From a phage, in sequence record PZ386953.1: a stretch of 64,000 bases of DNA. The stretch is one strand, 5' to 3'. A program made the translations under genes and the position numbers. This document shows positions 2-56,125 of the stretch, in pieces (within the stretch, counting starts at the first letter, position 1; every line of letters starts with the position of its first letter). Under the pieces are notes generated by a model. The model saw nothing but the letters and a program-made list of their open reading frames with translations. It did not search any database and was not told the DNA's origin.

Positions 2-226
2 AACGGTAACGGTGATGTAACAATCACTATCCCGCAGACAGGTGTGCAAGACATCAGAATCGGTGCAAGACTTGTTGACGGCGTTTCTGAATCTCCAATT
101 CGCAACGGCTACGTTGTCACAGGCTGGCATTTCGGTGACAAAAAAGAGATGCGTGGTTCAACCTACTGGGCAGGACCTTTACAAAAACTTGTAAATGGTC
201 AATGGATCACTGTTAATTATGCATAG
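2..226 (+). CDS. 3' end of tail-fibre-like gene (partial, starts upstream of window)
   Basis: Open frame from window edge to TAG 224-226; last 30 nt (about 182-211) identical to 2240-2269, giving shared C-terminus QKLVNGQWIT; NGNGDVTI motif also recurs in the giant fibre gene. Confidence 0.5.
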   Translation, partial: NGNGDVTITIPQTGVQDIRIGARLVDGVSESPIRNGYVVTGWHFGDKKEMRGSTYWAGPLQKLVNGQWITVNYA

Positions 227-16040: not shown

Positions 16041-17081
16041 TTATTTAACGTGTTTGAAAATACCTGCCAACTCGGTCATTGTCATGCGGGTGGTCTTCAT
16101 AAGATCTGTCATAGCTTTCTCCATAATTGGAGATACTACCATAAAGTTTCCTTTAGTGAAACCTTTATTCCAGTCGGTCACCAACAGGGGTTTAAGTCCA
16201 GCTCCAAGACGTTCACCAGTTAAAGCACAGCATTTGCGAATATACGAACTCTTAAATTGGCTGAACGACAGATCAACTTTCATACCTACATCGTAGAACG
16301 TTTGACAATAGAAAGTGTAAGCTTTGGCAATCTCAACATCATCAGGTAGTGCAGGAACCTCTTCTGTAAGCCCCTCTTCGACCTCCTGAGTCTCTTTTTC
16401 CTCTTCATGCACCTGTTGCGTCATTTCTTCAATCTCTTCTGTGATAGGCTCGTTTACAATGTCGGAAATGTGCTTCTTGGGTGCACGATAAGTAACTTTA
16501 GACATCGGTAGCATATCTTCCTCCTCTTCTTCGTCAAAGAGTGCTAGTTTATCCTCTTCCGTTCCATATTGCAAGATGAAATCTTCAAAAGTATAATCAC
16601 CTTTCAATTTCTCCATACGCTCTTCGCTCAGGTGGAGCATCATCTGCTGGACAATTTTTCGATCAGTTTCGTCTTTAATCAAGACTGCAGTCTTTTTATC
16701 TACCAGACAGTCCTTTAGAGAGTTGCATCTCAATCCCACCACACAACAGTTATCAACCGCATAAGGACCTTCATCATCTATCCGCTCCAGGGATGGGTAG
16801 AAAGGATTCCCCAGCCCGTTTTCATCTGTGTGCATGTCAAAAGGTATAAGGGTATAGTCGCATACTCCATCTCCTAAAAGTTTTTTACCAAATAGGAGGT
16901 ATTCTTCCCATGACAGGTCGAACTCTATATCTCGTTTCCGTGCGTTATTCTGTTTGCGTCTATATTTTTTGAGCAAGCGCTCTAACTCTTCTGGTGTATA
17001 ATATTTTTCAAGATTCATGAGTCGTCTCTCGTGCTCTGTAAGTGAAGAAATCGTATCAATTGTCTCAACAGATGTCAACAT
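16041..17081 (-). CDS. acidic hypothetical protein (possible degenerate HNH-like region; internal SD+ATG)
   Basis: 347-codon ORF from TTG at 17084, ATG one codon later; poly-acidic stretches; internal GAGGAGG+ATG at the MSKVTYRA motif. Confidence 0.45.
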   Translation of the reverse strand: MLTSVETIDTISSLTEHERRLMNLEKYYTPEELERLLKKYRRKQNNARKRDIEFDLSWEEYLLFGKKLLGDGVCDYTLIPFDMHTDENGLGNPFYPSLERIDDEGPYAVDNCCVVGLRCNSLKDCLVDKKTAVLIKDETDRKIVQQMMLHLSEERMEKLKGDYTFEDFILQYGTEEDKLALFDEEEEEDMLPMSKVTYRAPKKHISDIVNEPITEEIEEMTQQVHEEEKETQEVEEGLTEEVPALPDDVEIAKAYTFYCQTFYDVGMKVDLSFSQFKSSYIRKCCALTGERLGAGLKPLLVTDWNKGFTKGNFMVVSPIMEKAMTDLMKTTRMTMTELAGIFKHVK

Positions 17082-18335: not shown

Positions 18336-18348
18336 GGAGACCTTACCG

Positions 18349-18705
18349 ATGTCTAAAGTTACTTATCGTGCAGCTATTTACTGCAATGAACACCCAATCA
18401 ATAATGATGGTCACTGCCTTTTTAAAGAAAATCAATTGGGCTGTATTGTCCTCCCCGATGAAGGGGAAGGTTATCTGATTGCATTGACAGGGTTTGAACC
18501 TGAGGCTCTGGAAGCCAATCTGGACTACCTGGTAGAAGAGGGTGCTGCAGACCTGGTTGCCAATGGCCTCTCCATAAGCCTTGACGAAGTAGAGCGCTTC
18601 ATGGGCAATTACCGTGTAGTGCGTGAGTTTACTATCGAGGTGGAAACTCCCGAGTGGGGTAGCCATGAAACTAATGCCGAAGAAAAAGAAGAGGAGGTAG
18701 AATAA
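18349..18705 (+). CDS. acidic hypothetical protein
   Basis: AAGGAGA SD 8 nt before ATG at 18349; first 8 codons MSKVTYRA lie in the 29-bp inverted repeat shared with gene 16041-17081. Confidence 0.5.
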   Translation: MSKVTYRAAIYCNEHPINNDGHCLFKENQLGCIVLPDEGEGYLIALTGFEPEALEANLDYLVEEGAADLVANGLSISLDEVERFMGNYRVVREFTIEVETPEWGSHETNAEEKEEEVE

Positions 18706-42946: not shown

Positions 42947-43254
42947 TACTTGAAAATTCCTGGCATATCAAGTATAAGGGGGATTTCTAAAATGGATTTC
43001 CTCCTTTTGATATTTCACCGGGCTGGATATTTTAAAATTCTTAGAAAATCAGAAAATGGATCGAAAACTAAAATGTATTTTTCAGAGTAGGCGCGACAAG
43101 CTGAATAACTCATCCTATCGTTTGCACCATATTCCAGGCCACCATTATAGATTTTCCCACACATGCTCACATCCTTCTACCAGAACTTTCCCACTCGCCC
43201 TTGGCCTTTTATGGCAATAATCCAGCCACTATCTTGAAGTTGCGGTACAGCTTT

Positions 43255-43345
43255 CCAAGTACTCGATCTGTTTTTCGTTTCAAAGATTGAATTTTCTGAA
43301 AATTTTTCTCGATAAATTTCCAAGTACTCGATCTGTTTTTCGTTT
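43255..43345. repeat. pair of 26-29 bp direct repeats
   Basis: CCAAGTACTCGATCTGTTTTTCGTTT at about 43255 and 43320, with further GAAAATGGAT-like short repeats around them. Confidence 0.6.
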
Positions 43346-43551
43346 TCTGAATCGGATTTTCTGGAAATCGTTCCAGCTCTCTACCTGAAATTTTTGGGGA
43401 CGAAATCGATTTTTCGTTTTCAGAAATGGATTTTTAAAATTTCTATATGGGAATATTTTATGGGATACTGTTTTATAGGAAATTGTTACGGAGGGTAATT
43501 AGCATGCTAATTAAATTTATTAAATGCGAGGAGTTCTCATTTAGAATTTTG

Positions 43552-43765
43552 AATGATAATCATTCTCGTTTGCAGAATAACGGGCAGGCCCGGTGATTGT
43601 CTCCCGGCCCCTGTTGCCCCGGCTTGTTATTATAGTATCACACAGGACAAAGAAGGCAAGGATTTTTTGCATAAATTTTTAAATGATAATGATAACCGTT
43701 CTCATTTTATGCAGCGCCCATCCCCGGTGGTTGTCTCCCCCGTCACCGGTGCCTGCCGTCCTTTC
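43552..43765 (+). repeat. two tandem diverged copies of a GC-rich structured element
   Basis: AATGATAAT ... GCAG ... CCGGTG(A/G)TTGTCTCCC units at about 43552-43640 and 43682-43765; core GGCAGGCCCGGTGATTGTCTCCC recurs inverted at about 53185. Confidence 0.5.
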
Positions 43766-43962
43766 GATAGGTATATTGTGCCCCCCCTGGCGGGGCCGCT
43801 GTCAACACCTTTTCAAAAAATTTTTCTAACCTGATGCGCTAACCGTTGCAACCTGGCGGGGCCAGCCTGGCAGGACCTAACTGACCAGGTGGGAGAGGGT
43901 GAAATCTTGCAAACCTGGTAGGCCCATGCTGTAGGGTAAACAATTGAAGAGGAGGTACAAAA

Positions 43963-44103
43963 ATGAAAGGTAATGCTACTCACCTGGGAAATGTAGTGAT
44001 TAATGATACAGAAGCGCGGGAACATAAAGAAGAGTACGAAAAAATGGTGGTTAACCTGGCGGGGGCGGCAGGTGGATTCTATCATAAAAATAATTTAAAA
44101 TAA
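43963..44103 (+). CDS. small ORF (46 aa), uncertain
   Basis: Strong SD AGAGGAGG before ATG; lies in a repeat-rich region. Confidence 0.3.
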   Translation: MKGNATHLGNVVINDTEAREHKEEYEKMVVNLAGAAGGFYHKNNLK

Positions 44104-44106
44104 TCG

Positions 44107-44135
44107 TTGACAACAAGGTTAATCATGGTATTATT
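44107..44135 (+). promoter_or_regulatory. sigma70-like promoter
   Basis: TTGACA - 16 bp - TATTAT. Confidence 0.5.
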
Positions 44136-44184
44136 ACCCTACAAGGTGAACAACACCGCACTAACCAGTAAAGAGGATAAAATC

Positions 44185-44382
44185 ATGAACGCATACGGGA
44201 TCAAAGTACGTCGCAACACTCGCCAGGTGGTCACCGATCAAATGGTTTGCCAGGTGGACGTAACCATCAACAACGGGCAAGGCCTTTATAAATTCCGTCG
44301 CGGTCAGAGCTATACCCGGCAACAGCTTAATCGTTGCGCCCTGACAAAAGGACAGATCAACCACTGGTTTAATAAAAAATAA
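44185..44382 (+). CDS. small basic early protein
   Basis: ATG preceded by AAGAGGATAAAA SD; 65 aa. Confidence 0.5.
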   Translation: MNAYGIKVRRNTRQVVTDQMVCQVDVTINNGQGLYKFRRGQSYTRQQLNRCALTKGQINHWFNKK

Positions 44383-44385
44383 GTA

Positions 44386-44414
44386 TTGACATATAGTCCG
44401 ACACCAAATACACT
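44386..44414 (+). promoter_or_regulatory. sigma70-like promoter
   Basis: TTGACA - 17 bp - TACACT. Confidence 0.5.
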
Positions 44415-44446
44415 AAAAGCACAAAAGACACTAAGAGGATAAAATC

Positions 44447-44845
44447 ATGAAAACCACCACCTTTAATTTTGATAATGCGGACTTTTCTTTTTCTGATGTC
44501 AAGAACTGCCGCCGTGATCGTGGATTTTACAAGGCTTATAATCTGGTGGGCCTGGACGATGACAATAATTTGCACGAAGTAGCTGAGATCCGGTATTATG
44601 CCGCCGCCAGCGGGAACACTCACTACTGCGTGTTTTGGATTCACGACAACAAGAACAATAAGTACGGTTATACTGGCGGCAAGGCGAGCGGTCACGGTTA
44701 CGATAAAGCTAACGCAGCACTTGAGAGCGCATTAAATGCTATGGGGATCACTGCCGACGGCTGGATCTACGAAGAAGAGTTTTTGTCGGCACTTGCTGAC
44801 CACCTGGGCTATAAAAAACACATTGTAACATGCGCCCACGAATAA
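44447..44845 (+). CDS. hypothetical early protein
   Basis: 132 aa; SD AAGAGGATAAAA. Confidence 0.5.
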   Translation: MKTTTFNFDNADFSFSDVKNCRRDRGFYKAYNLVGLDDDNNLHEVAEIRYYAAASGNTHYCVFWIHDNKNNKYGYTGGKASGHGYDKANAALESALNAMGITADGWIYEEEFLSALADHLGYKKHIVTCAHE

Positions 44846-44927
44846 AAATCATTGACACGCTGCAAAATTTAAGTAAACTAGACACAAAAGGCGGGAATGT
44901 TTCCCGCCAGCACAAAGGAAAAAGATC

Positions 44928-45323
44928 ATGAATAAGAACGTACGCCGCATCATGAACGAACTGGCAAACGATGAAAAAATTATTGATATGCATTTGGTCA
45001 ACATTTGCCGCCGTTGTGTAACATATAACAACCGCGCCGCAAAAGCGCGTGAGATGAACGCAAAAGGCACCTTAAAGCCCTTTCAGGTGGTTGTAAAATC
45101 TATAACTAGCGCAGCAGGCCAGGCGCAGGACCACAACAACGAGAGCGCTAATATTGATCCGTCTTACGTAATGAAACGGATCCGGACTTGCAAGAATAAA
45201 GAGCAGGTATATAACGTCATAGATTGGCTGGACTCCCTGGGCGATGTGGTTTACAATAGGTTTTCTGCAGCTATCGAGATCCAGCTTGACAGATTGGACG
45301 GGAAAGTACTAAAAACTTATTGA
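44928..45323 (+). CDS. hypothetical early protein
   Basis: 131 aa; preceded by promoter TTGACA and 5'UTR hairpin GGCGGGAA-TGTT-TCCCGCC. Confidence 0.5.
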   Translation: MNKNVRRIMNELANDEKIIDMHLVNICRRCVTYNNRAAKAREMNAKGTLKPFQVVVKSITSAAGQAQDHNNESANIDPSYVMKRIRTCKNKEQVYNVIDWLDSLGDVVYNRFSAAIEIQLDRLDGKVLKTY

Positions 45324-45325
45324 GT

Positions 45326-45370
45326 TTATTTTTAGATGGCCTTGACACCAGGGCCATCAATAAAGTAAAC
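45326..45370 (+). promoter_or_regulatory. conserved 45-bp element, copy 1 (TTGACA held in hairpin loop)
   Basis: TTATTTTTAGATGGCCTTGACACCAGGGCCATCAATAAAGTAAAC; identical copy at 45947, near-identical at 49662. Confidence 0.6.
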
Positions 45371-45403
45371 TAACCACAGTTGAGCGGAAAAGGAGGCTTA
45401 AAG

Positions 45404-45523
45404 ATGAGCACTACACGCCAGCACACAAAGGTAACCATCATCGTTTGCATCATTGGGTACATCCTGGCGCAAATGTTGATGGGTAGCGCCAACGGTGTCG
45501 CAAAATTTTTCTTAAACTTTTAA
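45404..45523 (+). CDS. hydrophobic micropeptide (39 aa)
   Basis: AAGGAGG SD then ATG; sequence MSTTRQHTKVTIIVCIIGYILAQMLMGSANGVAKFFLNF; below the 60-aa ORF cutoff. Confidence 0.35.
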   Translation: MSTTRQHTKVTIIVCIIGYILAQMLMGSANGVAKFFLNF

Positions 45524-45602
45524 TTGACAAGCTAACTTAAATCGATATAATAAGCACATAAACGGGAAAACTTCCCAGAACACACAAAAGGAGAAAAACA
45601 CC

Positions 45603-45944
45603 ATGACTACTATGACCGCCTCAGAAAAAGCTATGCAGATCGCTGAACTGAAAAAACAGATCGCAGACCTTGAGAATAAGATCGATAACTTTGAAATCGA
45701 CGAGGACAAGTACGACGAAAACTATGATGAATGGTTAGACGAGATCTACGGCGAAATTATGATCGGAAACATTTCTTTTCTTCCGTCGCGTATCCTCAAG
45801 GAGCTAGATCCTATCGCTTACCGCTGCGGATTTAGCGACTACATCGACAGCCTGGATATTGAGAACGATGAAGAATACCAGGAATTACAGACAGAGTTAG
45901 AAGAAGCAAAAGAAGAGCTTGCGGAGCTGGAAGAAAACGAGTAA
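45603..45944 (+). CDS. acidic coiled-coil early protein
   Basis: Promoter TTGACA/TATAAT, 5'UTR hairpin GGGAAAACTTCCC, SD AAAGGAG; 113 aa. Confidence 0.5.
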   Translation: MTTMTASEKAMQIAELKKQIADLENKIDNFEIDEDKYDENYDEWLDEIYGEIMIGNISFLPSRILKELDPIAYRCGFSDYIDSLDIENDEEYQELQTELEEAKEELAELEENE

Positions 45945-45946
45945 GC

Positions 45947-45991
45947 TTATTTTTAGATGGCCTTGACACCAGGGCCATCAATAAAGTAAAC
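45947..45991 (+). promoter_or_regulatory. conserved 45-bp element, copy 2
   Basis: Identical to copy 1. Confidence 0.6.
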
Positions 45992-46033
45992 TTTATACTG
46001 TTAACACTGAACGAATGCATAGGAGTTAAAACC

Positions 46034-46279
46034 ATGGCAGCACTAATCACCAAATATTATGCCCCTACCAATACCAAAAGCGCCCGTATCATGGTAAAAG
46101 GCTTCGGACGTAAAAAGGTGTACACCTGGGATTATGCCTTAGACACGGAAGACAACTACACCAACGCAATGACCGATTTTATTAATGAACTAAATAAGCA
46201 GATCTTGACAAGTTATAAAGTGACCGATATTGCTTATATAGGTGAAGGCGGGATCTGTTTTGTAGGCATTGTGAAATAG
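46034..46279 (+). CDS. hypothetical early protein
   Basis: 81 aa; translation initiation region ATAGGAGTTAAAACCATGGC shared with gene at 50624. Confidence 0.5.
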   Translation: MAALITKYYAPTNTKSARIMVKGFGRKKVYTWDYALDTEDNYTNAMTDFINELNKQILTSYKVTDIAYIGEGGICFVGIVK

Positions 46280-46353
46280 TTATTTTTTCGGTGGTCCTGG
46301 TTGCAGGGCCATCTATAAAGATAATTTATTAACACCATGAAAGGAGAAAGTAC

Positions 46354-46707
46354 ATGATCAGCGGGGCAAGTTTTATTATTGGCGCTATTGCTACGGCTTT
46401 AATTGTAAATAAGATCCAGGATAAAAAGGAAAGAGGAAGTACCGCCCTTGCAGAATATCCATTTTGGGCATTCAACGATAACGAAGATTATATTATAAAG
46501 TATAAAAATAAAGAAGGTGACCAAGTAACACCGCGACCGATCCCGGCTTACAAAATGCAGGAAACACTATACCGCCTGAAGGCGGGGGGCGCAAAAATTG
46601 TAGACTTTTGGGGATACGACCACACAGATCAGGAAGTTATAAAGCGCCGTATCCGGGCTATTCAGGCCAATATTGAAGTTAGCAAGGGGGGAATATATGA
46701 AAATTAA
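46354..46707 (+). CDS. early protein with N-terminal TM helix
   Basis: MISGASFIIGAIATALIV; SD AAAGGAG. Confidence 0.5.
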   Translation: MISGASFIIGAIATALIVNKIQDKKERGSTALAEYPFWAFNDNEDYIIKYKNKEGDQVTPRPIPAYKMQETLYRLKAGGAKIVDFWGYDHTDQEVIKRRIRAIQANIEVSKGGIYEN

Positions 46708-46894
46708 TTTCGAGAAAATTGTAAAGCGCCCTCATGATTCCGAAGAGCTGCCAGAACGCCGCCAGCGTAACAATAAACTGAATAAGCCAAAAAGGTTTGG
46801 GAAGATCTGGCGTAATCATTATGATCGTAAATTGCCCGGCCTACTTTTGGAACGTGAACGACAGGCAGAACGATACCGCCATAAAGACAAATAA
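46697..46894 (+). CDS. small basic protein
   Basis: In-frame ATG inside track ORF 46673-46894; Arg/Lys-rich. Confidence 0.4.
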   Translation: MKINFEKIVKRPHDSEELPERRQRNNKLNKPKRFGKIWRNHYDRKLPGLLLERERQAERYRHKDK

Positions 46895-46903
46895 CAACCA
46901 ACT

Positions 46904-46930
46904 CCCCGCCATTGTGCGGGGCTTTTTATT
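46904..46930 (+). terminator. intrinsic terminator
   Basis: CCCCGC-CATTGT-GCGGGG then CTTTTTATTT. Confidence 0.7.
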
Positions 46931-47053
46931 TCTATCCTACGAATAGCGCCCCTGGTTGGCCCTGTAAGCGCCAAAAAGGCCCCCACCTATGCAATCGCCC
47001 CCCTTTAACCTGAAAACATCGCCCATGGCCGTTTCATGGCGTTAAAAATATCA

Positions 47054-47081
47054 TTGACATCGTCAACAGGTTAGCTATACT
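47054..47081 (+). promoter_or_regulatory. sigma70-like promoter
   Basis: TTGACA - 16 bp - TATACT. Confidence 0.55.
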
Positions 47082-47113
47082 AACCACATCAAAGAGAGAA
47101 AGGAGTAAACGCC

Positions 47114-47374
47114 ATGCGTAAATTAAAAAATTTTGATAAAGTTGATGTTATCCTGAATAATTTTTACTACTGCAACAACAAGGCTATTTGGTGGCGTGAT
47201 AGTTCCACCGATAAAGTTAAGGCGCGCTTTCTTCAAGGGCACTGGCAAGGCCGCCCAGTGATTAAAATCATGGGGCAATTGGTAGCTTTCAAAAATTGCC
47301 GCCGTGCTGATGATATCGAAGATATCTTGAACGTTTTACGCTACAACAATTTTAAAAATAGTGTTGACAAGTAA
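47114..47374 (+). CDS. hypothetical early protein
   Basis: 86 aa; SD AAAGGAG. Confidence 0.5.
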   Translation: MRKLKNFDKVDVILNNFYYCNNKAIWWRDSSTDKVKARFLQGHWQGRPVIKIMGQLVAFKNCRRADDIEDILNVLRYNNFKNSVDK

Positions 47375-47391
47375 GATTAAACAAGTATACT
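47364..47391 (+). promoter_or_regulatory. sigma70-like promoter followed by 5'UTR hairpin
   Basis: TTGACA - 16 bp - TATACT; hairpin GGCGGGAAAAATTCCCGCC at about 47402-47420. Confidence 0.55.
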
Positions 47392-47448
47392 TAATCACAT
47401 AGGCGGGAAAAATTCCCGCCACCGCCGAAGAAAATAGGAGAAAATATC

Positions 47449-48072
47449 ATGACTACCGTTAACATTACCGCAGGTTACAATTTATCTTTCGACGTGCTGA
47501 CCGACGAACAAAAAGAAAAAGCCGTTGAAATGGTCCGCGAAAGAGAGGAAAACAGCGGTGATAACTTTTTCGCAGAAAGCGTAATTGAATACTATAAAGA
47601 ATATGTTTTTCCAGAGTATGGCCTTGAAGATACCGAAGTACATTGGTCAGGCTTTTGGTGCCAGGGTGACGGCGCGTCAATCAGTGCTGAAAACGTGGAT
47701 TTAGAAAAATTTTTGCGTAAAGTAAAGGCCCTGACCAAGTTCCGATCAATTCGTCACTTGTTCGGCACAATGCACGATGGCGAGTTATCAGCCAGTGTTG
47801 AACGCGACAAGTACAGCCATTACAGCCATGAAAACACTGTAAGCGGGTACATTGATACCACTTGGCTAGATCTGACCGCCAAACAAGAAAACAAAGTGGA
47901 AGACCTGGAAGAACTGATCACCGAGACGGTACGGGAGCTATCCCGCAAGGTTTACGTAGACCTGGAGGAGGCCTATCTAGAACAGTTCACCGCAGAAAAC
48001 CTGATCGGCCTTATCGAGGCCAATAACTGGCGGTTTGATGTCGATGAATATGGTGAGATGACTTTTTCATAA
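47449..48072 (+). CDS. hypothetical early protein
   Basis: 207 aa; SD ATAGGAGAAAA. Confidence 0.5.
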   Translation: MTTVNITAGYNLSFDVLTDEQKEKAVEMVREREENSGDNFFAESVIEYYKEYVFPEYGLEDTEVHWSGFWCQGDGASISAENVDLEKFLRKVKALTKFRSIRHLFGTMHDGELSASVERDKYSHYSHENTVSGYIDTTWLDLTAKQENKVEDLEELITETVRELSRKVYVDLEEAYLEQFTAENLIGLIEANNWRFDVDEYGEMTFS

Positions 48073-48080
48073 ATAAAGTG

Positions 48081-48108
48081 TTGCAATAACCTAAAAACCT
48101 GCTATATT
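48081..48108 (+). promoter_or_regulatory. sigma70-like promoter
   Basis: TTGCAA - 16 bp - TATATT; 5'UTR hairpin GGGGGCAAGACGTTTGCCCC follows. Confidence 0.45.
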
Positions 48109-48162
48109 AAAACTCAAGGGGGCAAGACGTTTGCCCCAACACAAAACAAAGAGGATAACATC

Positions 48163-48543
48163 ATGAAAAACACTACCAAGGCTATTGACACCGTTATGTT
48201 TAACCTGGTTACATTCCGTGAAGATATGAAAGATCTTCCTCGTGAAACAGTGTGCGACCATATCGAAAACTATCGCAAACTAATCAAAGAGTTGCCTTTA
48301 AAACGTGATCAATATGCGGCTAACGCCATGCTTAATGCCATGATCAAAAAGATGATCCAGTGTGATTTAACCCTGGCCTATGATTATGCAGGCGGTCGTT
48401 TTGCAGTATACAATCAGCCCGTGCCCGGTATGAGCACCACCGAAGAATTGCACGCGCTCAATCTAAAACAAGACGTGTGGGATAGTATGCCTCGCGTGGT
48501 GGTATGGGTAGAAAGCGGAAAGATTTACGGCGATAATTTTTAA
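48163..48543 (+). CDS. hypothetical early protein
   Basis: 126 aa; SD AAGAGGATAACA. Confidence 0.5.
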   Translation: MKNTTKAIDTVMFNLVTFREDMKDLPRETVCDHIENYRKLIKELPLKRDQYAANAMLNAMIKKMIQCDLTLAYDYAGGRFAVYNQPVPGMSTTEELHALNLKQDVWDSMPRVVVWVESGKIYGDNF

Positions 48544-48552
48544 TCAGGTAGC

Positions 48553-48580
48553 AGGCGGCATATTTGCCGCCTTATTGTTA
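48553..48580 (+). terminator. intrinsic terminator (weak T-tract)
   Basis: AGGCGGCA-TATT-TGCCGCCT then TATTGTT. Confidence 0.5.
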
Positions 48581-48607
48581 ATCAGAACTGTAAAAGAGGT
48601 ACATAGA

Positions 48608-48979
48608 ATGGAATTTATTATTTTGGCTGTATTGGTTGCCTTGTTTAACGCCTGGATCGCTGGCAAGATGGGAAGATCCGCCTTTTTATGGTTTATTATA
48701 TCTATTTTCCTGGGGGTGGTTGCAACTATTGTATTGGTTATCCTTGCAATTGTTGACAAGGGGAATAATAGAAAGGGTAAAGTATTTTCAGACCTGTACG
48801 ACGCTCAAACGTTTGTCAACGCCTATTATAGTGATCTTCCAGTCTCCCTACGCTGCAGCCTGGCACAACAGGTTTTTGATGAGGCTAAAACCAGAGATCA
48901 AGCCCATGAGATATGTTTAACTGAGGCGGATCGCCTATTTGAGAGGAATAGAAAATATGTGGGCCAACCGTTTAAATAA
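48608..48979 (+). CDS. small inner-membrane protein (two TM helices)
   Basis: ATG after AAAGAGG SD; MEFIILAVLVALFNAWIAG ... LWFIISIFLGVVATIVLVILAIV. Confidence 0.5.
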   Translation: MEFIILAVLVALFNAWIAGKMGRSAFLWFIISIFLGVVATIVLVILAIVDKGNNRKGKVFSDLYDAQTFVNAYYSDLPVSLRCSLAQQVFDEAKTRDQAHEICLTEADRLFERNRKYVGQPFK

Positions 48980-49089
48980 TGCCACGTTAATTAATCCCTT
49001 TAGTGAAGATTTGAAGCCAGCCGCCTGGCGTGACGGATTCAATAACGAACGCTTTATTTTCAGGCCTGATCTTGAGGAATTTTATAACA

Positions 49090-49215
49090 ATGGATCGAAC
49101 AACAGCGGAGATAATTTTTCTTGTGGTGTGCGTGGTGATGGTACTCCTGGGGGCCATTGTAAACCACGTCACTACTACCAGAAGGAAAGGGGGAGACGAT
49201 GACAACCAAGGATAA
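49090..49215 (+). CDS. hydrophobic micropeptide (41 aa), uncertain
   Basis: Internal Met of track ORF 49030-49215; TM segment IIFLVVCVVMVLLGAIV. Confidence 0.3.
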   Translation: MDRTTAEIIFLVVCVVMVLLGAIVNHVTTTRRKGGDDDNQG

Positions 49216-49318
49216 GCCATGTACCGATAAGGTGCGCCGCGTTATGGTATGGCTTGAGATTATCGCCCTTGAAATATTGCTAGGCGTAGGGATGTACTTT
49301 ATCGCTGTAAGTAACTAA
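49199..49318 (+). CDS. hydrophobic micropeptide (39 aa)
   Basis: GGGGGAG SD; ATGA overlap with upstream stop; TM segment VMVWLEIIALEILLGVGMYFIAV; terminator immediately downstream. Confidence 0.35.
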   Translation: MTTKDKPCTDKVRRVMVWLEIIALEILLGVGMYFIAVSN

Positions 49319-49322
49319 GAAC

Positions 49323-49350
49323 GGCCCCCGATCATGGGGGCCTATCTTTT
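49323..49350 (+). terminator. intrinsic terminator
   Basis: GGCCCCC-GATCAT-GGGGGCC then TATCTTTT. Confidence 0.7.
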
Positions 49351-49457
49351 AAAAAAATTTTTCTTCCGTGGTGTTGCAATCCGATCCGGAATGTGGATAA
49401 TAACAATCAACGGGGAGCTAATCCCCACCACCACAAAAACCAGAAAGGAGAAACAAA

Positions 49458-49658
49458 ATGAGCAACAATATCCGCGTTATTAACTTCAAAAAAGAAGAAA
49501 AAATTGCCGTGCTGATTGACGGTCAAGAAATCTTCAAGGGCGACTATGAAGATCATCAAACGGCGATTAGTATCACTCGCGTGATTGGTTACCATAATTT
49601 CTACCCCCAAGGCGCTGAGGCAGCAGTTAAACGAATCAAAGAGATTGTAGGCCTGTAA
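49458..49658 (+). CDS. hypothetical early protein
   Basis: 66 aa; SD AAAGGAGAAA. Confidence 0.5.
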   Translation: MSNNIRVINFKKEEKIAVLIDGQEIFKGDYEDHQTAISITRVIGYHNFYPQGAEAAVKRIKEIVGL

Positions 49659-49661
49659 AAT

Positions 49662-49706
49662 TTATTTTTAGATGGCCTTGACTTCAGGGCCATCAATAAA
49701 GTAAAT
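49662..49706 (+). promoter_or_regulatory. conserved 45-bp element, copy 3
   Basis: TTATTTTTAGATGGCCTTGACTTCAGGGCCATCAATAAAGTAAAT (3 mismatches to copy 1). Confidence 0.55.
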
Positions 49707-49749
49707 TTAAACCCTGTTAAAATAATCAGTGCAAAAAGGAGTAATGGTC

Positions 49750-50049
49750 ATGTTTATACCCGCCAATAATCTTTATTTCTTTGATGGTCAGATCGTAGAC
49801 GGTGTGGAAGTGGAGATCACTGGGTGCCCTGGTGGTCAGGCTATGACTTTTCGGAATAATGCCTTTGATGATTCTCGTATCGTTATGAGAATGGAAGTTA
49901 CAAAGCTGGACGACAAGAAAACACTCATTGACTATTCCGTGAAAGATCATCCAGACCACCACATGATCTATGGTGATTTGTGCATTGTTGACCGTGACAA
50001 GGTGAGCGGCATTGTGATCGCTATTGTGAACGATGTTTTCTCAAACTAA
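49750..50049 (+). CDS. hypothetical early protein
   Basis: Start chosen 8 nt after AAGGAG SD inside track ORF 49729-50049. Confidence 0.45.
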   Translation: MFIPANNLYFFDGQIVDGVEVEITGCPGGQAMTFRNNAFDDSRIVMRMEVTKLDDKKTLIDYSVKDHPDHHMIYGDLCIVDRDKVSGIVIAIVNDVFSN

Positions 50050-50066
50050 TTTCAGCAGGTGATTTT

Positions 50067-50417
50067 ATGAAAGTTAAATTATATTACCTCAATGAGCTTA
50101 ACCCGCTTGCACAAGTCCACGCCCTGGATAACGCTGTTTATTGTGAAAAGTCTATATACAGTGTTGAGCTTAACGCTATGCGTGAACGCCTTAAAGGCGG
50201 TTACTTTGACATCCATGCTGCAATCAACGGCCTGAATATAGAATTTATCCGCTTACGTAACAGCCGCCAGAATCTGGCAAGAATGGAACAAGATCCGGCC
50301 CACCTTCGTAAGCTGGTTATTGAAAATCATCTGATGTTTAATGCCGATGGTGATTATTACCATTTTCACCGTAAACGCTGGTACCGTAGCGGCAATATAG
50401 GAAAGAATGCAAAATAA
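50067..50417 (+). CDS. hypothetical early protein
   Basis: 116-aa ORF. Confidence 0.5.
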   Translation: MKVKLYYLNELNPLAQVHALDNAVYCEKSIYSVELNAMRERLKGGYFDIHAAINGLNIEFIRLRNSRQNLARMEQDPAHLRKLVIENHLMFNADGDYYHFHRKRWYRSGNIGKNAK

Positions 50418-50452
50418 GGCCCCTGGCAGGGCCTGCAGCGATATAATCACAT

Positions 50453-50486
50453 AAAGGCTATGCGGTTGCATAGCCTTTATTATTTT
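50453..50486 (+). terminator. intrinsic terminator
   Basis: AAAGGCTATGC-GGTT-GCATAGCCTTT then ATTATTTT. Confidence 0.7.
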
Positions 50487-50623
50487 GGCGTTACAGCGGC
50501 CCCCAAGGCGCTTAAAAAATTTTTAAAGAAGTACTTGCATCAAGTCCTACAATATGGATAATAAAGGGTGTCGGGGGGCGGTGAGGCCTCCAATCATTAA
50601 CCGGATAGATAGGAGTTAAAACC

Positions 50624-50908
50624 ATGGCTATTGTTACCGTTGGCGATGTAGTAGAAATGGAAGCCAAATACTTAAAAGCTGGTATGCATATCATACGGAA
50701 TGATCAAGAATTGTTATTAACCATGGTTGAATATAATCCCGGTCAGGATTATCCAAGCATTGACTACTTTTTCCAGTATGTTGATGAAGAATTAAAAGAG
50801 GATGAGGCTTATCAGGGTGAATTTTGTAATTTCTTTTGCTCTGATGAGGTTGTAAAAGTTATCTATCAACCTGGCGTACCTTTCCCGCTGCACGCTATCA
50901 ATAAATAA
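50624..50908 (+). CDS. hypothetical early protein
   Basis: 94 aa; initiation region identical to that of gene 46034. Confidence 0.5.
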   Translation: MAIVTVGDVVEMEAKYLKAGMHIIRNDQELLLTMVEYNPGQDYPSIDYFFQYVDEELKEDEAYQGEFCNFFCSDEVVKVIYQPGVPFPLHAINK

Positions 50909-50964
50909 ACCTGGCGGGGCCGAAAAGGCCCCCCAATTATGAAAATAAAGAGAGGCAAATCATC

Positions 50965-51198
50965 ATGATGGAACAAATTAAACGCGCCGAGGCTATTAAT
51001 GGCAACGTGATCTATTTTGTCAGCAAAAACGAAAAAGGCGTACCCTATGCGGCGGTAATAGTACAGCCTGACGGCGATTATTGGTGCACTGTGTACGGCG
51101 CTTATTCTTTTGGGCGTCCGGTGCATGATAAAATTTTGAAAGTAGCGAACCCTACCGGGAAAAATATTACAGCAGAAAAATTTTTTGAAAATAGTTGA
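50965..51198 (+). CDS. hypothetical early protein
   Basis: 77 aa; SD AAGAGAGG. Confidence 0.5.
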   Translation: MMEQIKRAEAINGNVIYFVSKNEKGVPYAAVIVQPDGDYWCTVYGAYSFGRPVHDKILKVANPTGKNITAEKFFENS

Positions 51199-51274
51199 CA
51201 TGACTATATAAAACTGTAGTATATAAATCAAAGGGGGCAACAAGCCCCACCAACCACAAAGAGGATAAAAAATC

Positions 51275-51454
51275 ATGGCTATTATTGCAAAGACCGAGAT
51301 CGTAGGCTTAGATTCTATTCTCCTCGCATATGAGGAAGCTATAGAAATGTATGTGGTTTCCTATGGTGAGTATATCCGTGAATATGAATCTATTGATCTA
51401 GCTTTTGAATGTTATATTCGCCAGGTTAATAAAGCGTACGATGATTATCGTTAA
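51275..51454 (+). CDS. small acidic protein (59 aa)
   Basis: Promoter TTGACA at about 51195, 5'UTR hairpin GGGGGCAACAAGCCCC, SD AGAGGATAAAAAA; just below ORF cutoff. Confidence 0.4.
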   Translation: MAIIAKTEIVGLDSILLAYEEAIEMYVVSYGEYIREYESIDLAFECYIRQVNKAYDDYR

Positions 51455-51545
51455 AATAGTTTGACAACAAACAACCATCTAACAAAGCATAATACATAAG
51501 GTGGTAGAATGATCCGCCACCCGGAACAAAGAAGAGGTAAACACC

Positions 51546-51791
51546 ATGAAAAGCAATAAAGGTTATAACGGTTACAAAAACAAAACTCATTGGAATGTAA
51601 GCCTTTGGATTAATAACGATGAGTCATTGTACCGGTTGGCCCAAGGATTTATTAACGCTAATGCTAATCGTAATGATGCGGCGCGGGATATGATGCTTTT
51701 TCTGGAGCTAACCGGACAAGATAAGACCCCGGACGGCTTCAAGTACAGCACTACGGCGATCCGTGCCGCGATGGTTGGAATGAAACACTAA
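51546..51791 (+). CDS. hypothetical early protein
   Basis: 81 aa; 5'UTR hairpin GGTGG...CCACC then SD AGAAGAGG. Confidence 0.5.
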   Translation: MKSNKGYNGYKNKTHWNVSLWINNDESLYRLAQGFINANANRNDAARDMMLFLELTGQDKTPDGFKYSTTAIRAAMVGMKH

Positions 51792-51868
51792 AAGCACATA
51801 GCCGCCTTACCCTGGGGCTGTAGTAGCGGCCCCATGAATAAGGTTACTAACAGAAGAGAATAAACACT

Positions 51869-51973
51869 ATGAAACAGAAATTAATCGATGCAGTGATCTT
51901 GGTTATTGCCCTGGGTATTGGCCTGATTGCAACCATGTCTAATATGATCTTGTCTTCCAACGGTATCGGGTGA
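51869..51973 (+). CDS. hydrophobic micropeptide (34 aa)
   Basis: SD AGAAGAGAA; MKQKLIDAVILVIALGIGLIATMSNMILSSNGIG. Confidence 0.3.
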   Translation: MKQKLIDAVILVIALGIGLIATMSNMILSSNGIG

Positions 51974-51982
51974 GGTTGGCAA

Positions 51983-52198
51983 ATGATCACTAACAAAACA
52001 GGCAAAACAGAATTTTTACGCAACTTACAGATCGGCAAGCCTGAGATCTGGTACTGCACTAAAACACCGCGTGACGAAATGAAAGACTTCACCGCCACGC
52101 TGCAACGGGTAAAGATATCTATCACGCAGAAAAAGGCCTTACTAGTGGTGGAAGGGGAGATCCCCCAAACCGTTGTTATAGTTGAGCGTACAGCATAG
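51983..52198 (+). CDS. hypothetical early protein
   Basis: 71-aa ORF. Confidence 0.45.
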   Translation: MITNKTGKTEFLRNLQIGKPEIWYCTKTPRDEMKDFTATLQRVKISITQKKALLVVEGEIPQTVVIVERTA

Positions 52199-52289
52199 TT
52201 TAATTTATACCGATACCCGAAAATTAACCAACAAAGCATAAACAGGCGGTTACCGCCGCCTTAAACGTAGCAGAAAGAGGATAGACACA

Positions 52290-52580
52290 ATGAAAAAGAT
52301 GATCGCAGTGGTTGCCCTGGTTGTTGGACTTAGTGCGCCTGCAATGGCTAATGAGCTGGCAAAAGAGGTTAATCTAACGGATATTCATGCCGTCAATCGA
52401 ATCGGGGTTACTTATCGCTTATGCCTTGCCACTAAAACTTTTAATGACGGTACAACAGAGTACTACGGGTTTGAGGGTATCCGGTGCGGTGAGCTTGCTC
52501 GCGACCTTAAGGAAGATCCAGACCTGGAAGATCTGCCCATCACCGTAAACGGTAAAGCTTACGTAAACCGCCAACAATAA
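52290..52580 (+). CDS. small secreted/periplasmic protein
   Basis: Signal peptide MKKMIAVVALVVGLSAPAMA; SD AGAAAGAGGA; 5'UTR hairpin GGCGGTTACCGCC. Confidence 0.5.
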   Translation: MKKMIAVVALVVGLSAPAMANELAKEVNLTDIHAVNRIGVTYRLCLATKTFNDGTTEYYGFEGIRCGELARDLKEDPDLEDLPITVNGKAYVNRQQ

Positions 52581-52596
52581 GTAAGGGAGATGTAAA

Positions 52597-52788
52597 ATGA
52601 ATACTGAACAAGTTAGAAAGGTATTGGCGGTACTGCGTTATCATAATCATAGAAAGGTCATAGACGATCCTGATTATGTAGATTCAAGCCTGGAAGAAGA
52701 CACGCTACAAGCTATCAGCCATATGCAAGAATTGCTTAAGCGCATGACAGAGAAAAACCGACCGGACTACATAGGGGGTAAAATATGA
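52597..52788 (+). CDS. hypothetical early protein
   Basis: 63 aa; SD AAGGGAGA. Confidence 0.45.
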   Translation: MNTEQVRKVLAVLRYHNHRKVIDDPDYVDSSLEEDTLQAISHMQELLKRMTEKNRPDYIGGKI

Positions 52789-53096
52789 TCGCTATTACGC
52801 CAACCGTTTTAGATTGGTATCGGCAACGCATAGCTCCTCCGCTGGCTATCTTCAAAGATGCGGAATCAAAACAACGCCGGATCTCAATACATGAGATCAT
52901 CAACCTTAACGCTGGAGGCACACCATACCGCCCAGGGCCTGGCCGTGAGATGGACAATACGTTAGCGATCCTGAAGATACGCCGTAAACGGTCCTCCCTT
53001 ACGCTGGACTCCTTACACACAATGCAGTCTCCGTTCCAGGTGACCGGGAAACGGATCGCCAGGTCCTGGACAAAGGCCAATGATCGGACCGTATAA
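52785..53096 (+). CDS. hypothetical early protein
   Basis: 103 aa, ATGA overlap. Confidence 0.45.
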   Translation: MIAITPTVLDWYRQRIAPPLAIFKDAESKQRRISIHEIINLNAGGTPYRPGPGREMDNTLAILKIRRKRSSLTLDSLHTMQSPFQVTGKRIARSWTKANDRTV

Positions 53097-53184
53097 ATAA
53101 AAAGTGCTTTGGTACTGATTTTGGGGGTTGACTTGTTCGGCCCCTTTTGCTATTCTTATTAAACGGGCGGCACTTGGGAACAGG

Positions 53185-53207
53185 GGGAGACAATCACCGG
53201 GCCTGCC
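53185..53207 (-). repeat. inverted copy of the 43.58-kb structured element core
   Basis: GGGAGACAATCACCGGGCCTGCC is the reverse complement of GGCAGGCCCGGTGATTGTCTCCC at about 43583-43605. Confidence 0.55.
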
Positions 53208-53315
53208 TGTCATATAAGAACTATAAAAACCGTTGACATCTGCCAGGTGGTGGGGTAACATTTATCTTGAAGGGGCAAAAGTGCCCACACAACAACCAGA
53301 AGAGAGGAAAACATT

Positions 53316-53588
53316 ATGTCAAGCTGGATTAATCAAGAAGTCGAATCACGTTTTAATGCTATTTGGGATCTCATCGAAAAAGAGGACGGAACATCAAGCC
53401 CTTATCTCAATAATCTTGAATTCCATTTCGTGGAAGCGATGAACGCAGAACATGATCACGAAGGTGGTGCGGATGAGTTCGCTAAAGGGTATGGCTTCAA
53501 CAATGCCAACGAAATGATCGAGGCGGTTGTACTCCAGGCTGAGGAAGATTATCAATTAAAAACGCTTGAATTCTGCCGCCGTAAGTAA
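53316..53588 (+). CDS. hypothetical early protein
   Basis: 90 aa; promoter TTGACA at about 53233, hairpin GGGCAAAAGTGCCC, SD AGAGAGGAAAA. Confidence 0.5.
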   Translation: MSSWINQEVESRFNAIWDLIEKEDGTSSPYLNNLEFHFVEAMNAEHDHEGGADEFAKGYGFNNANEMIEAVVLQAEEDYQLKTLEFCRRK

Positions 53589-54479: not shown

Positions 54480-54497
54480 TTTCTTAACTGAACTATC

Positions 54498-54526
54498 AGG
54501 GGCTTTAAAAGGCCCCTTTCTTTTTG
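54498..54526 (+). terminator. intrinsic terminator closing the + strand early block
   Basis: GGGGCTTT-AAAA-GGCCCC then TTTCTTTTT. Confidence 0.7.
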
Positions 54527-55129
54527 TCTGTATTTCTCCTACCACAAACGGCCCCACCTGGCAAGTGGAATAATTGACTAGCCATCAATCCCACACACTG
54601 TACAAATATACATGTAAAATAGCTATTGCATAATCTTTCATTGTGTGGTAGCAGGGCCATTTTTACACGTTTTTCCTTCCAAAATTGCACGTAATGCCGC
54701 TATTGCACAAAATTTAACCTGATGCATATCTTCAGTGTCTTGTCAACAACTAAAAATCTTTATAAGTCATACACTTACACACTCACAAAAGCGTGTTCTA
54801 CGTGAAAAATCGAGTATAACTATAGCCGCCAGATCTCAGAATTTACGTACGTTCACCATTCTATAGTCTGCTAAGTATTTATTCCAACCATAGAATAATG
54901 GAATAGTCAATACCTGCATAAAATAATTATTCGTGTAAACTGCATAACATAAATCAGCTTAGGTGTCAACATTTTTCGTAAACAGCCTGAAATTATCACG
55001 GTGAGTTATCATAAACAGAGAAATCTTTAGTCGTCTAATGTTTACTGTACATTACTATACTTACTGGAATCATTAGATGACTAAGAGAAAGATAAGAAAT
55101 AATTAACAATACAATTATTTTATCTGTAA

Positions 55130-55570
55130 CAATAAGGCAACTATGCAAACGAATGGCATGGCGCGACGGAGTCGCGACATAATATAAAAGCAGTAACCAT
55201 CACCCCCGTGATAGTTTGTCTGCAAACTATTAATCAGATCATAGTTGCCTTGTATTTAGTTAATCATGACATAACAAGCAAGGCAACTATAGATCTGCTA
55301 ATAGTTGCCCTGCTTTTATATTATGTCATATATTATTAACCTGTTAATTGTCAGCTTATTGGCTGTTAGCTTGTCAATTGTTAACTTGTTAATTGTTATC
55401 ATGCAAACGAATGTCATGGCTTATCATCTTTGTGTAAACAGTCAATCATGTAAATGATAAGTATGTGAACAGTTATCCATGTAAACTATTAGACATGTAA
55501 ACAATCAGGTGTGCAAAAGTGTCATAGTATGTCACTATTGTGTCTAAAGTGTCACCAGTATGTCAGACAA
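55130..55570. repeat. iteron-like repeat array (candidate origin / regulatory hub)
   Basis: GGCAACTAT x4 in both orientations incl. a 29-bp palindrome around AGATCT; 20-mer ATGCAAACGAATG(G/T)CATGGC x2; TTAATTGT x4; ATGTAAAC x4; TGTCA x5 phased at 9-11 bp. Confidence 0.6.
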
Positions 55571-56125
55571 GTTTTTCTCCTCTTTGTCAAGTGCTGCATG
55601 AAAAATTTACAAACTGGTATGGTAGCATTTTTGCGGCCCTGTTTACATTCAGCGATGTATGTATAAACCTTGCTGTGTGGGCGTTTAGACGTCTAGACGG
55701 TTGGAAGTCTGCAGGTCAATATCTAATCTATTGGCTGCTAACCATATCCCACACAAATAGTAATAAATATAATTGTTATATGCGTAAACAGTAACTCATG
55801 TTATCAATCCCTGTATGTATCGCCAGTGGTGCGCATAATGGGTATTATGTTAAATTGCCCGTAATGATAACTATTCTCACAATGATAGGTATTCTCATTC
55901 ACCCCCACAAGATAGGTTGCAAATGTTGTGCCACTGTGTGAACGGCCTAGCCTATTAATTTGCCTCACTGCCTTGATATTTGAGAATTGTTATAAGAATG
56001 AGAAGTATTCCCATTTCGTCCGCTTGGCAGCACTCCAGTCGCTACCGGCTCCTGACAGGGCAGCACTCCTGTCGGTCAGGTCAAAATCGTGGTATAACTG
56101 GACCTGTTCAGATATTTCTGGCTGA

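Follow-up and report, generated by a model that had tools for sequence, protein, structure and literature searches.

A conserved non-coding element downstream of predicted early promoters in an rV5-like Vequintavirus and other phages: a candidate early RNA or leader module

The stretch analysed here, 64,000 nucleotides (nt) of sequence record PZ386953.1 (the window), comes from an rV5-like Vequintavirus: the region of interest is 99.4% identical to Escherichia phages ime and rV5_ev146, and 122 rV5-like (Vequintavirus) records match it at megablast level. An original prediction, made from the sequence, described a GC-rich structured element that occurs twice in tandem before the early genes and once, inverted, among them. 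The 23-mer core GGCAGGCCCGGTGATTGTCTCCC does lie at 43583–43605 (+), with its exact reverse complement at 53185–53207. It is unique within the window, which holds no further match with up to three mismatches (shuffles expect 0). The 23-mer has no dyad symmetry, and the two sites form an inverted repeat that is 93% complementary over 29 nt. The diverged tandem copy CCGGTGGTTGTCTCCC (43724–43739) was likewise recovered, as was AATGATAAT upstream of both tandem copies in the orientation used in the prediction, here called the GGTG sense. Searched with a sequence-only covariance model, R1, built from 53 copies of many phages, the window gave exactly three matches; the strands listed are those of the sense proposed below.

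43572–43606, minus strand: c1, R1 match of 39 bits (E = 1e-10), with the exact 23-mer; sense RNA ...GGGAGACAAUCACCGGGCCUGCCCGUUAUUC; 12-mer at 43592–43603
43713–43742, minus strand: c2, diverged copy, R1 match of 25 bits (E = 3e-6); GGGGGAGACAACCACCGGGGAUGGGCG; 12-mer at 43726–43737
53182–53219, plus strand: c3, R1 match of 38.6 bits (E = 1.6e-10); 12-mer GAGACAATCACC at 53187–53198

Copies c1 and c2 form the tandem at 43.57–43.74 kb. Copy c3, at 53.18–53.22 kb, is inverted relative to them, and its sense strand is the plus strand, the direction of the early genes. Two open reading frames (ORFs), 43553–43834 (+) and 43813–44085 (−), overlap the tandem copies. They exist mechanically, and both had been suspected of being spurious, a view that frame-breaking indels and the lack of a Pfam match sustain for both. 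The first lacks a Shine-Dalgarno sequence, and its ATG lies inside a palindrome. Read in this frame, the core has a single variable base, at a second codon position (D/V/G), neighbouring third positions being invariant. The ORF differs by a 2-nt indel at 43781 from five of five aligned relatives, and the other indels are not multiples of three. Its annotation as a 'hypothetical protein' (phrog_14993) reflects repeated automatic annotation of the same DNA. The second ORF belongs to no Pfam or PHROG family and also carries frame-breaking indels.

Sensitive blastn recovered a block of ~80 nt, comprising a AATGAnAATCATTCTC palindromic box and the GC-rich element, from ~250 phage records in two subfamilies, the Vequintavirinae and Stephanstirmvirinae. 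The block occurs, among others, in Vequintavirus, Seunavirus, Certrevirus (phiTE, CR8, PBES02), Mydovirus and the phAPEC8-like and phi92-like Stephanstirmvirinae, and the sequence around it has diverged. Each genus examined has a copy in the GGTG orientation and an inverted one, ~8–10 kb apart; with model R1, outward-facing pairs were also found in rV5, Seunavirus and Mydovirus. Degenerate-pattern scans added copies from IMG/VR and metagenomes, among them freshwater phage contigs of 42–47 kb with at least 5–6 copies each and further contigs of 88–94 kb. By comparison, representative genomes of 185,579 bacterial and archaeal species yielded three pattern matches, one in a phAPEC8-like contig binned into a metagenome-assembled genome and two that match coding DNA by chance. 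Neither the chromosomes nor the plasmids of E. coli contain a homolog. Rfam 15 gave no match at gathering thresholds over the whole window, nor at E values up to 10 with permissive filters over the c1/c2 region (43200–44150), and tRNA and tmRNA scans were negative. A full-text literature search for the 12-mer returned no phage paper, and a search for shared neighbours across lineages found no protein family near the elements that is common to the enterobacterial and freshwater groups. The element is conserved in related genomes, across two subfamilies and in environmental phages. Judged by its sequence, it is a genuine, selectively maintained non-coding feature, and the module to which it belongs, described below, appears to be previously undescribed and phage-specific, ranging from rV5-like coliphages to unrelated freshwater phages.

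To assign an orientation, the best sigma-70-type promoter within 85 nt upstream was scored for 59 non-redundant copies from many phage lineages, a score of at least 10 being taken as strong and random windows from the same loci serving as background. With the core read on the strand opposite to that of the prediction, as GAGACAANCACC (the GAGACAA sense), 35 of the 59 copies have a promoter scoring at least 10, for example TTGACA-17-TATAAT or TTGACA-16-TATTAT. The GGTG sense gave 3 of 59, and 1.25% of background windows reached the threshold. The distance from the -10 box to the core is 23–30 nt in most copies and 40–44 nt in one lineage. All three window copies follow predicted promoters when read as GAGACAANCACC, and the functional sense is most likely the reverse of that first proposed. 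The predicted promoters in the window are as follows.

43659–43632, minus strand: c1 promoter, TTGCCT (43659–43654), 16-nt spacer, TGaTACTAT, -10 box at 43637–43632
43805–43775, minus strand: c2 promoter, TTGACA (43805–43800), 19-nt spacer, CACAAT (43780–43775)
53128–53156, plus strand: c3 promoter, TTGACT-17-TATTCT, its -35 box overlapping a terminator hairpin at 53123–53145
53233–53261, plus strand: second promoter, after c3, TTGACA-17-TAACAT with CCAGGTGG in the spacer, serving the gene at 53316–53588

The c1 promoter is the same in the window, rV5 and a 139-kb metagenomic relative (L126) except for one base, the n of the extended -10 TGn. The c2 promoter has a 17-nt spacer in relatives (score 12.5 in L106); the window has a 2-nt insertion at 43781 that lengthens the spacer and may therefore weaken this promoter. 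Since the promoters drive the GAGACAANCACC strand, c3 would be transcribed with the early genes and c1 and c2 away from them. Leftward of c1 and c2 lie first non-coding DNA and then sequence antisense to the upstream plus-strand genes, with no gene downstream, so that the two promoters would transcribe nothing recognisable but the element. Copy c3 sits between two promoters (the cassette at 53123–53156 and that at 53233–53261) and has no ORF of its own; the gene behind the second promoter matches phrog_7287. At the level of sequence the copies possess a promoter of their own, as is expected of a stand-alone bacterial-type small RNA (sRNA) gene.

The block conserved on the sense strand reads GG-AGACAA-N-CACC, then GG.CCTGCC.G, then YTATTC or GTTTTTC. 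As RNA, this is a stretch of ~36 nt made up of GGAGACAA-N-CACC, a C-rich arm (..CCUGCC.G) and a U-rich tail (YUAUUC or GUUUUUC), the tail standing at a fixed 13 nt from the core 12-mer. The 12-mer was imposed by the search patterns; the IMG/VR scan left the hexamer and the GCA of the arm free, and both were found in all true matches.

The freshwater contigs repeat the arrangement in a constant order: gene, terminator, promoter 1 (TTxxxx-16-TGnTATAAT), ~20 nt, GGGGGAGACAAWCACCGGGG…GTGTTTTTCAAATG, promoter 2 (~60–110 nt past the element) and gene. The sense of the element tracks the strand of the flanking genes wherever that strand switches. In two copies of another lineage (L190, at position 605, and L186) the element comes after a TTGACA/TTGACT-17-TATAAT promoter and has, ~25–30 nt further on, a canonical terminator (AAAAAACCCAAC…GTTGGGTTTTT) behind it, which looks like a stand-alone gene for an RNA of ~110–130 nt. 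We also noted paired TGTAAC/TGTAAT motifs between the element and promoter 2 in L158, L163 and L173, and transcripts from freshwater promoter 2 seem to share the start TATAAT-GAACACATCAAGACAAC, which also contains AGACAA.

In the enterobacterial phages the element adjoins palindromes that resemble binding sites of the iron regulator Fur. Those beside the tandem copies are:

43549–43567: Fur-box-like palindrome at c1, TTGAATGATAATCATTCTC, 15 of 19 positions identical to the E. coli Fur consensus GATAATGATAATCATTATC
43522–43542: degenerate second Fur-like box near c1
43685–43703: Fur-box-like site at c2, GATAATGATAACCGTTCTC, 16 of 19 positions identical to the consensus

The sites at c1 and c2 are the only ones in the window with at least 15 of 19 matches, and by this measure both qualify as Fur boxes; they also account for the AATGATAAT flanks of the original prediction. 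The c2 site is the sole window match with no more than three mismatches (0.05 expected). At a looser 14 of 19, seven sites were observed against ~2 per window in Markov simulations. Other genera have 1–4 boxes at an apparently constant distance from the element, with a consensus, AATGAGAATCATTCTCATT, that resembles the 7-1-7 Fur dimer site (TGATAATnATTATCA). Some inverted copies have a Fur-like box as well, and box and element together form a block that different genera have kept; the freshwater lineages lack such boxes. In the sense orientation the box lies downstream of the element, and in the GGTG orientation it lies over the -35 box of a weak TTGAAT-18-CAGAAT promoter. Fur-like boxes also cluster in terminal non-coding DNA, in the window (55859–55905 and 55975–56015) as well as in phiTE, anhysbys and L153. 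In phiTE (L128, 21345–22813) and anhysbys (L127, 22439–24049) these clusters of near-consensus boxes occupy 1.4–1.6 kb of non-coding DNA beyond the inverted copy, and the phiTE boxes include an 18/19 site, GATAATGAGAATCATTATC; phiTE is otherwise known for its pseudo-ToxI RNA locus. Binding of Fur to the boxes is our inference. Given the terminal clusters, their role, or the protein that binds them, may be a different one. Literature searches on Fur boxes or transcriptomes of these phages found nothing relevant.

The explanation that we favour, with roughly even confidence, is that each copy is a short early non-coding RNA or leader module with a host sigma-70 promoter and no ORF. Such a module would consist of a strong sigma-70 promoter and, 23–44 nt after its -10 box, the conserved stretch of ~36 nt; its product, made by host RNA polymerase soon after infection, would be a short G-rich RNA. 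Because the c1 and c2 promoters yield only the element, it would work as a transcript or through being transcribed. With no gene following them, c1 and c2 would be stand-alone leftward RNAs, directed away from the early genes, and c3 either a stand-alone RNA or an upstream leader of the last early genes. The RNA would act through its invariant, largely unpaired 12-mer, a putative recognition site for a highly conserved partner such as a host protein, RNA polymerase, the ribosome or a conserved RNA. A conserved host partner is favoured because the same 12-mer recurs amid very different flanking genes that share no neighbouring phage protein. In the enterobacterial phages, and this is the most speculative step, host Fur bound at the adjacent boxes would probably modulate the module, either by blocking read-through of the leftward RNA or by repressing the weak opposing TTGAAT-18-CAGAAT promoter that would make the antisense strand.

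Several known phage small RNAs (lambda oop, 6S/pR' RNA, P1/P7 c4 and prophage DicF) are comparable, being short non-coding units with a host-type promoter in an early or regulatory region, and some copies of the module likewise have their own terminator. The module differs from them in lacking any sequence or Rfam relationship, in being present in several copies per genome and in unrelated virulent lineages, and in not being antisense to any recognisable gene. The 15/19 and 16/19 boxes beside an apparent sRNA unit, tandem in relatives, also call to mind Fur-regulated loci such as RyhB. The module has no similarity to RyhB, however, and its boxes lie downstream of a strong promoter rather than over it.

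A number of observations weigh against an RNA. The promoters are consensus matches only, and no terminator follows c1, c2 or c3 in the window, where the copies end in the C-rich arm and an interrupted U-tract (GUUAUUC). The invariance of the 12-mer is partly an ascertainment effect, since the search patterns fixed it, and Mydovirus has a core variant with an indel, CCCGG-TGTTTTGTACT-CCGG. A local hairpin (CCGG/CCGG around AGACAANCA) is paired in 45.9% of cells compared with 45.1% in shuffles, and its covariation is no better than that of slid controls. Folding z-scores of the promoter-driven c1, c2 and c3 RNAs are -0.7, -2.3 and -1.2 (-0.6, -1.7 and +0.6 on the other strand). There is in addition a closing helix in many enterobacterial and Ga0315903-lineage copies, in which a G-rich 5' arm near the predicted RNA start pairs with the conserved C-rich 3' arm (phiTE, AUAGCGGG/CCCGCUAU; L125, GCGGGCA/UGCCCGC; L056, GGCAGGCA/UGCCUGCC). 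This helix is absent in the freshwater lineage and does not differ significantly from composition-matched (mononucleotide) shuffles (mean z -0.5). Cognate arm duplexes are 1.4 kcal/mol more stable than non-cognate ones on the sense strand (p = 0.035), with no significant difference on the other strand (p = 0.15). Of the structure originally claimed for the element there remains, then, a marginal, lineage-restricted closing helix; the local hairpin lacks covariation and the folding scores are modest. Our conclusion is that conservation of the module lies mainly in its primary sequence, and that the pairing around it is particular to each lineage. A continuous non-palindromic motif of 31–36 bp with fixed internal spacing fits a recognition site at the DNA level equally well, and no partner or target of the element was identified.

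Among the alternatives, a cis-acting leader signal fares best, though we consider it unlikely. Here the 12-mer would serve for loading, pausing or attenuation, and the polymerase from promoter 1 would become terminator-resistant or terminator-sensitive there. The position of the element, at about +16 to +45 of promoters and in one orientation, agrees with this, as do its place before nearly every freshwater transcription unit (promoter 1, element, promoter 2, gene) and an early region full of terminator-promoter cassettes. Its two to three divergently oriented copies, directly downstream of early promoters in terminator-rich DNA, recall HK022 putL and putR and the lambda nut sites. However, put uses two conserved stem-loops, whereas structure in the module is weakly supported; no boxA or boxB similarity to nut was seen, and c1 and c2 have no operon to antiterminate. 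An invariant, non-palindromic and strand-dependent motif of ~12 nt in 5' leaders is also reminiscent of boxA and of ops/JUMPStart, through which RfaH is recruited, but its sequence differs from ops (GGCGGTAGNNTG) and from boxA and any Rfam leader, and the module is absent from bacterial chromosomes. Furthermore, c1 and c2 lack a co-oriented gene and run antisense to the upstream operon in all genera of Vequintavirinae and Stephanstirmvirinae examined, and in one lineage two copies end in a terminator of their own. Factors of the NusG, N or Q type did not turn up, although none was searched for.

The motif could instead be a duplex-DNA operator or roadblock, bound by a phage or host protein just downstream of early promoters in order to switch them off. 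The continuous conserved block with its fixed internal spacing, the want of convincing RNA covariation and the adjoining Fur-box-like operators would all suit such a site. We nevertheless regard it as rather unlikely: the motif is not palindromic, the c1 and c2 promoters that it would regulate transcribe nothing else, no protein family near the element is common to the enterobacterial and freshwater lineages, and the strong strand bias relative to promoters would not be required.

Improbable, in our estimate, is that the element is itself a promoter in the GGTG sense, in which case c1 and c2 would transcribe the early block when iron is limiting or the cell is stressed. Two forms can be envisaged, a Fur-repressed sigma-70 promoter (TTGAAT-18-CAGAAT) and one of the extracytoplasmic function (ECF) type, with the GAAT/AAC box as -35 and the GTC of TTGTCTC as -10. 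The bipartite motif with a fixed 13-nt spacer, the Fur-like boxes over the putative -35 in the classic position of a repressor, and a first early ORF (43963) with no sigma-70 promoter of its own speak in its favour, as does the AAC-N17-GTC geometry, a spacing that we take to equal that of E. coli sigma-E promoters. On the other hand, c3 and all freshwater copies would then be antisense to genes and run into a terminator within ~60–90 nt. The critical A at -11 is not conserved (CAGAAT, CGGAAT, CTGAAT, TTGAAA), sigma-70 scores are at background level (3/59), and the 'spacer' is itself conserved (GCA at -8 to -6). We also count against it that, according to the rV5 paper, homologs of the T4 late-transcription factors are lacking (PMC3606486). 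A related proposal, that c1 and c2 are Fur-repressed sRNA genes in the GGTG orientation with c3 as an antisense partner, was rejected, as the orientation test drives all three copies in the same sense and their RNAs would accordingly be homologous, not complementary.

A transcription-primed replication origin, in which a strong promoter and a G-rich RNA-like strand form an R-loop, appears very improbable. The RNA-like strand is indeed G-rich beside a promoter in many copies, and direct repeats and palindromes, which origins also have, occur around c1 and c2, but the G-runs are not universal (Seunavirus and Phapecoctavirus copies lack them), at least 5–6 copies are too many for a phage of 42–47 kb, and an R-loop leaves the invariant 12-mer unexplained. 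Finally, the suggestion that the copies bound a 9.6-kb segment which inverts or is special in some other way, as crossover sites for site-specific (Hin/Gin/Cin-type) or homologous inversion or as mobile or terminal-repeat boundaries, rests on the exact 23-nt inverted repeat 9.6 kb apart and on a pair kept ~8–10 kb apart in several genera, and it is largely refuted, to the point that we give it hardly any credence: the c1/c3 inversion junction was covered to at least 80% in none of 122 related genomes, the c1 locus is one intact piece in 113 records, the flanks of c1 and c3 are collinear everywhere, freshwater phages have at least 5–6 gene-oriented copies, and the physical ends map to 55566–56023.

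Further likenesses were discarded as too short or inconsistent across copies. They comprise the ToxI repeat (GGTGATT), the T7 initially transcribed sequence (GGGAGAC), the signal recognition particle RNA (CAGGUCCGG), 16S rRNA helix 34 (GAGACA..CUGC), CsrA GGA motifs, CRISPR repeats, the elemental pause consensus, sigma-32 and sigma-54 promoters, and DnaA, IHF and Ter sites. A 16-mer, CCGGTGATTGTCTCCC, is identical to a stretch of a capsid-like gene (…GLPVIVSQYVGDQLVLVN…) that more than 100 contigs of enterobacterial prophages carry (IMG/VR L002–L121), and to its mRNA the sense RNA of the element would be perfectly complementary. The IMG/VR scan with this 16-mer was swamped by that gene (…GLPVIVSQYVG…), and we judged this to be a chance match to one heavily sampled family. 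An sRNA directed against prophages was among the ideas considered.

The original prediction had also pointed to a recurrent ACCTGGCGGGG motif near the element. The 10-mer CCTGGCGGGG occurs exactly four times on the plus strand (43786, 43852, 44055 and 50910), within a few bases of the positions given there, where a simple calculation expects ~0.1 copies. The two copies that were examined belong to other features and not to the element: that at 43786 is part of the c2 promoter's spacer and reads CCCCGCCAGG on the other strand, and that at 50910 is one arm of a hairpin, GGGGCCgaaaaGGCCCC.

Terminal repeats of Vequintavirus are short, at 458–459 bp (PMC6563267, PMC7471380). By homology the 459-bp repeat of phage Gotham maps to 55566–56023 of the window, and the early genes (43.96–54.48 kb) are consequently transcribed toward the physical end. 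This places c3 ~2.8 kb, and c1/c2 ~12.4 kb or 9% of the genome, from the inferred end. Several assemblies break near c1, and the elements had been considered as a terminal-repeat or packaging boundary; this was rejected with the Gotham ends mapping elsewhere. The ~1.5 kb at 54480–56023 that ends at the inferred genome end matches a Gotham region with no annotated gene, and the Fur-like palindromes already mentioned there lie within ~10–50 bp of that end. To the left of c1, 43249–43434 is non-coding and has three direct repeats of 47–57 nt with a period of 65–74 nt (TTTCCAAGTACTCGATCTGTTTTTCGTTT…), which are iteron-like. A perfect 18-bp palindrome, TAATTAGCATGCTAATTA, follows at 43496–43513, between these repeats and the first Fur-like box.

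With its repeats, its palindrome and its distance of ~12.4 kb from the end, the setting of c1/c2 resembles the first-step-transfer and injection-stop region of T5. According to a 2026 study, sensitivity to daunorubicin is common to Vequintavirinae and T5-like phages (PMC13250531). The parallel with T5-like first entry is speculative, a lead and nothing further. Perhaps the module represents a new class of early RNAs or leaders that is widespread among phages and interacts with universally conserved host machinery (RNA polymerase, Nus factors or the ribosome), the leftward tandem copies and Fur boxes of rV5-like phages marking the inner boundary of a T5-like first-entering 9% and coupling iron status or polymerase-driven DNA entry to the switch from early to later expression; we think it quite improbable that this whole picture is right.

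Other features of the early region concern its leaders and cassettes. Many early mRNA leaders (promoters at 44852, 45524, 47364, 48081, 51195 and 53233) open with a short GC-rich hairpin, e.g. GGCGGGAAtgtTTCCCGCC, and have a CA-rich stretch between it and the Shine-Dalgarno sequence, a design that is probably a 5' stabiliser and translation enhancer. Apart from its larger size and the missing ORF, the element looks much like one of these leaders. Both CCAGGTGG and CCTGGCGG are found repeatedly in leaders and in the spacers of promoters, as at 53243 inside TTGACA-17-TAACAT. A family of 49-nt repeats (45323–45371, 45944–45992, 46278–46326 and 49659–49707; 71–98% identity to the reference copy) lies between small early ORFs. 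Each is a compact terminator-promoter cassette, with a terminator-like hairpin, TTGACA in its loop and then a -10 box (TAAACT). Arbiol et al. reportedly described, in 2010, PeSL-type promoter/stem-loop cassettes in plastic regions of T4-type phages; the 49-nt repeats and the 53123–53156 cassette are alike in combining a terminator hairpin and an early promoter flanking small ORFs. The module differs in being an extra transcribed segment downstream of such a cassette, conserved across phage families and not within one genome.

Two further observations were made in the window. CCWGG (Dcm/EcoRII-type) sites are ~3 times denser at 42–54 kb than elsewhere in the window (7–12 versus ~3 per 2 kb). 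A perfect 29-nt inverted repeat, TGCACGATAAGTAACTTTAGACATCGGTA, at 16482–16510 and 18344–18372, 1.8 kb apart, encodes ATGTCTAAAGTTACTTATCGTGCA when read outward and looks like the shared, identical 5' end of two divergent paralogous genes.

The analysis corrects spurious gene calls (phrog_14993 and relatives) and offers a precise target for RNA sequencing and mutagenesis, the module lying behind some of the strongest predicted early promoters and yet being annotated as a 'hypothetical protein'. If it is a real RNA, it would be a candidate new non-coding RNA family of therapeutic-type coliphages (relatives of rV5, phAPEC8 and PVP-SE1) and of uncultured freshwater phages, and its invariant 12-mer would suggest that early takeover has a conserved target in the host. 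For strictly virulent phages, Fur boxes so close to the consensus would, if true, represent an unusual wiring of a lytic phage into the iron sensing of its host.

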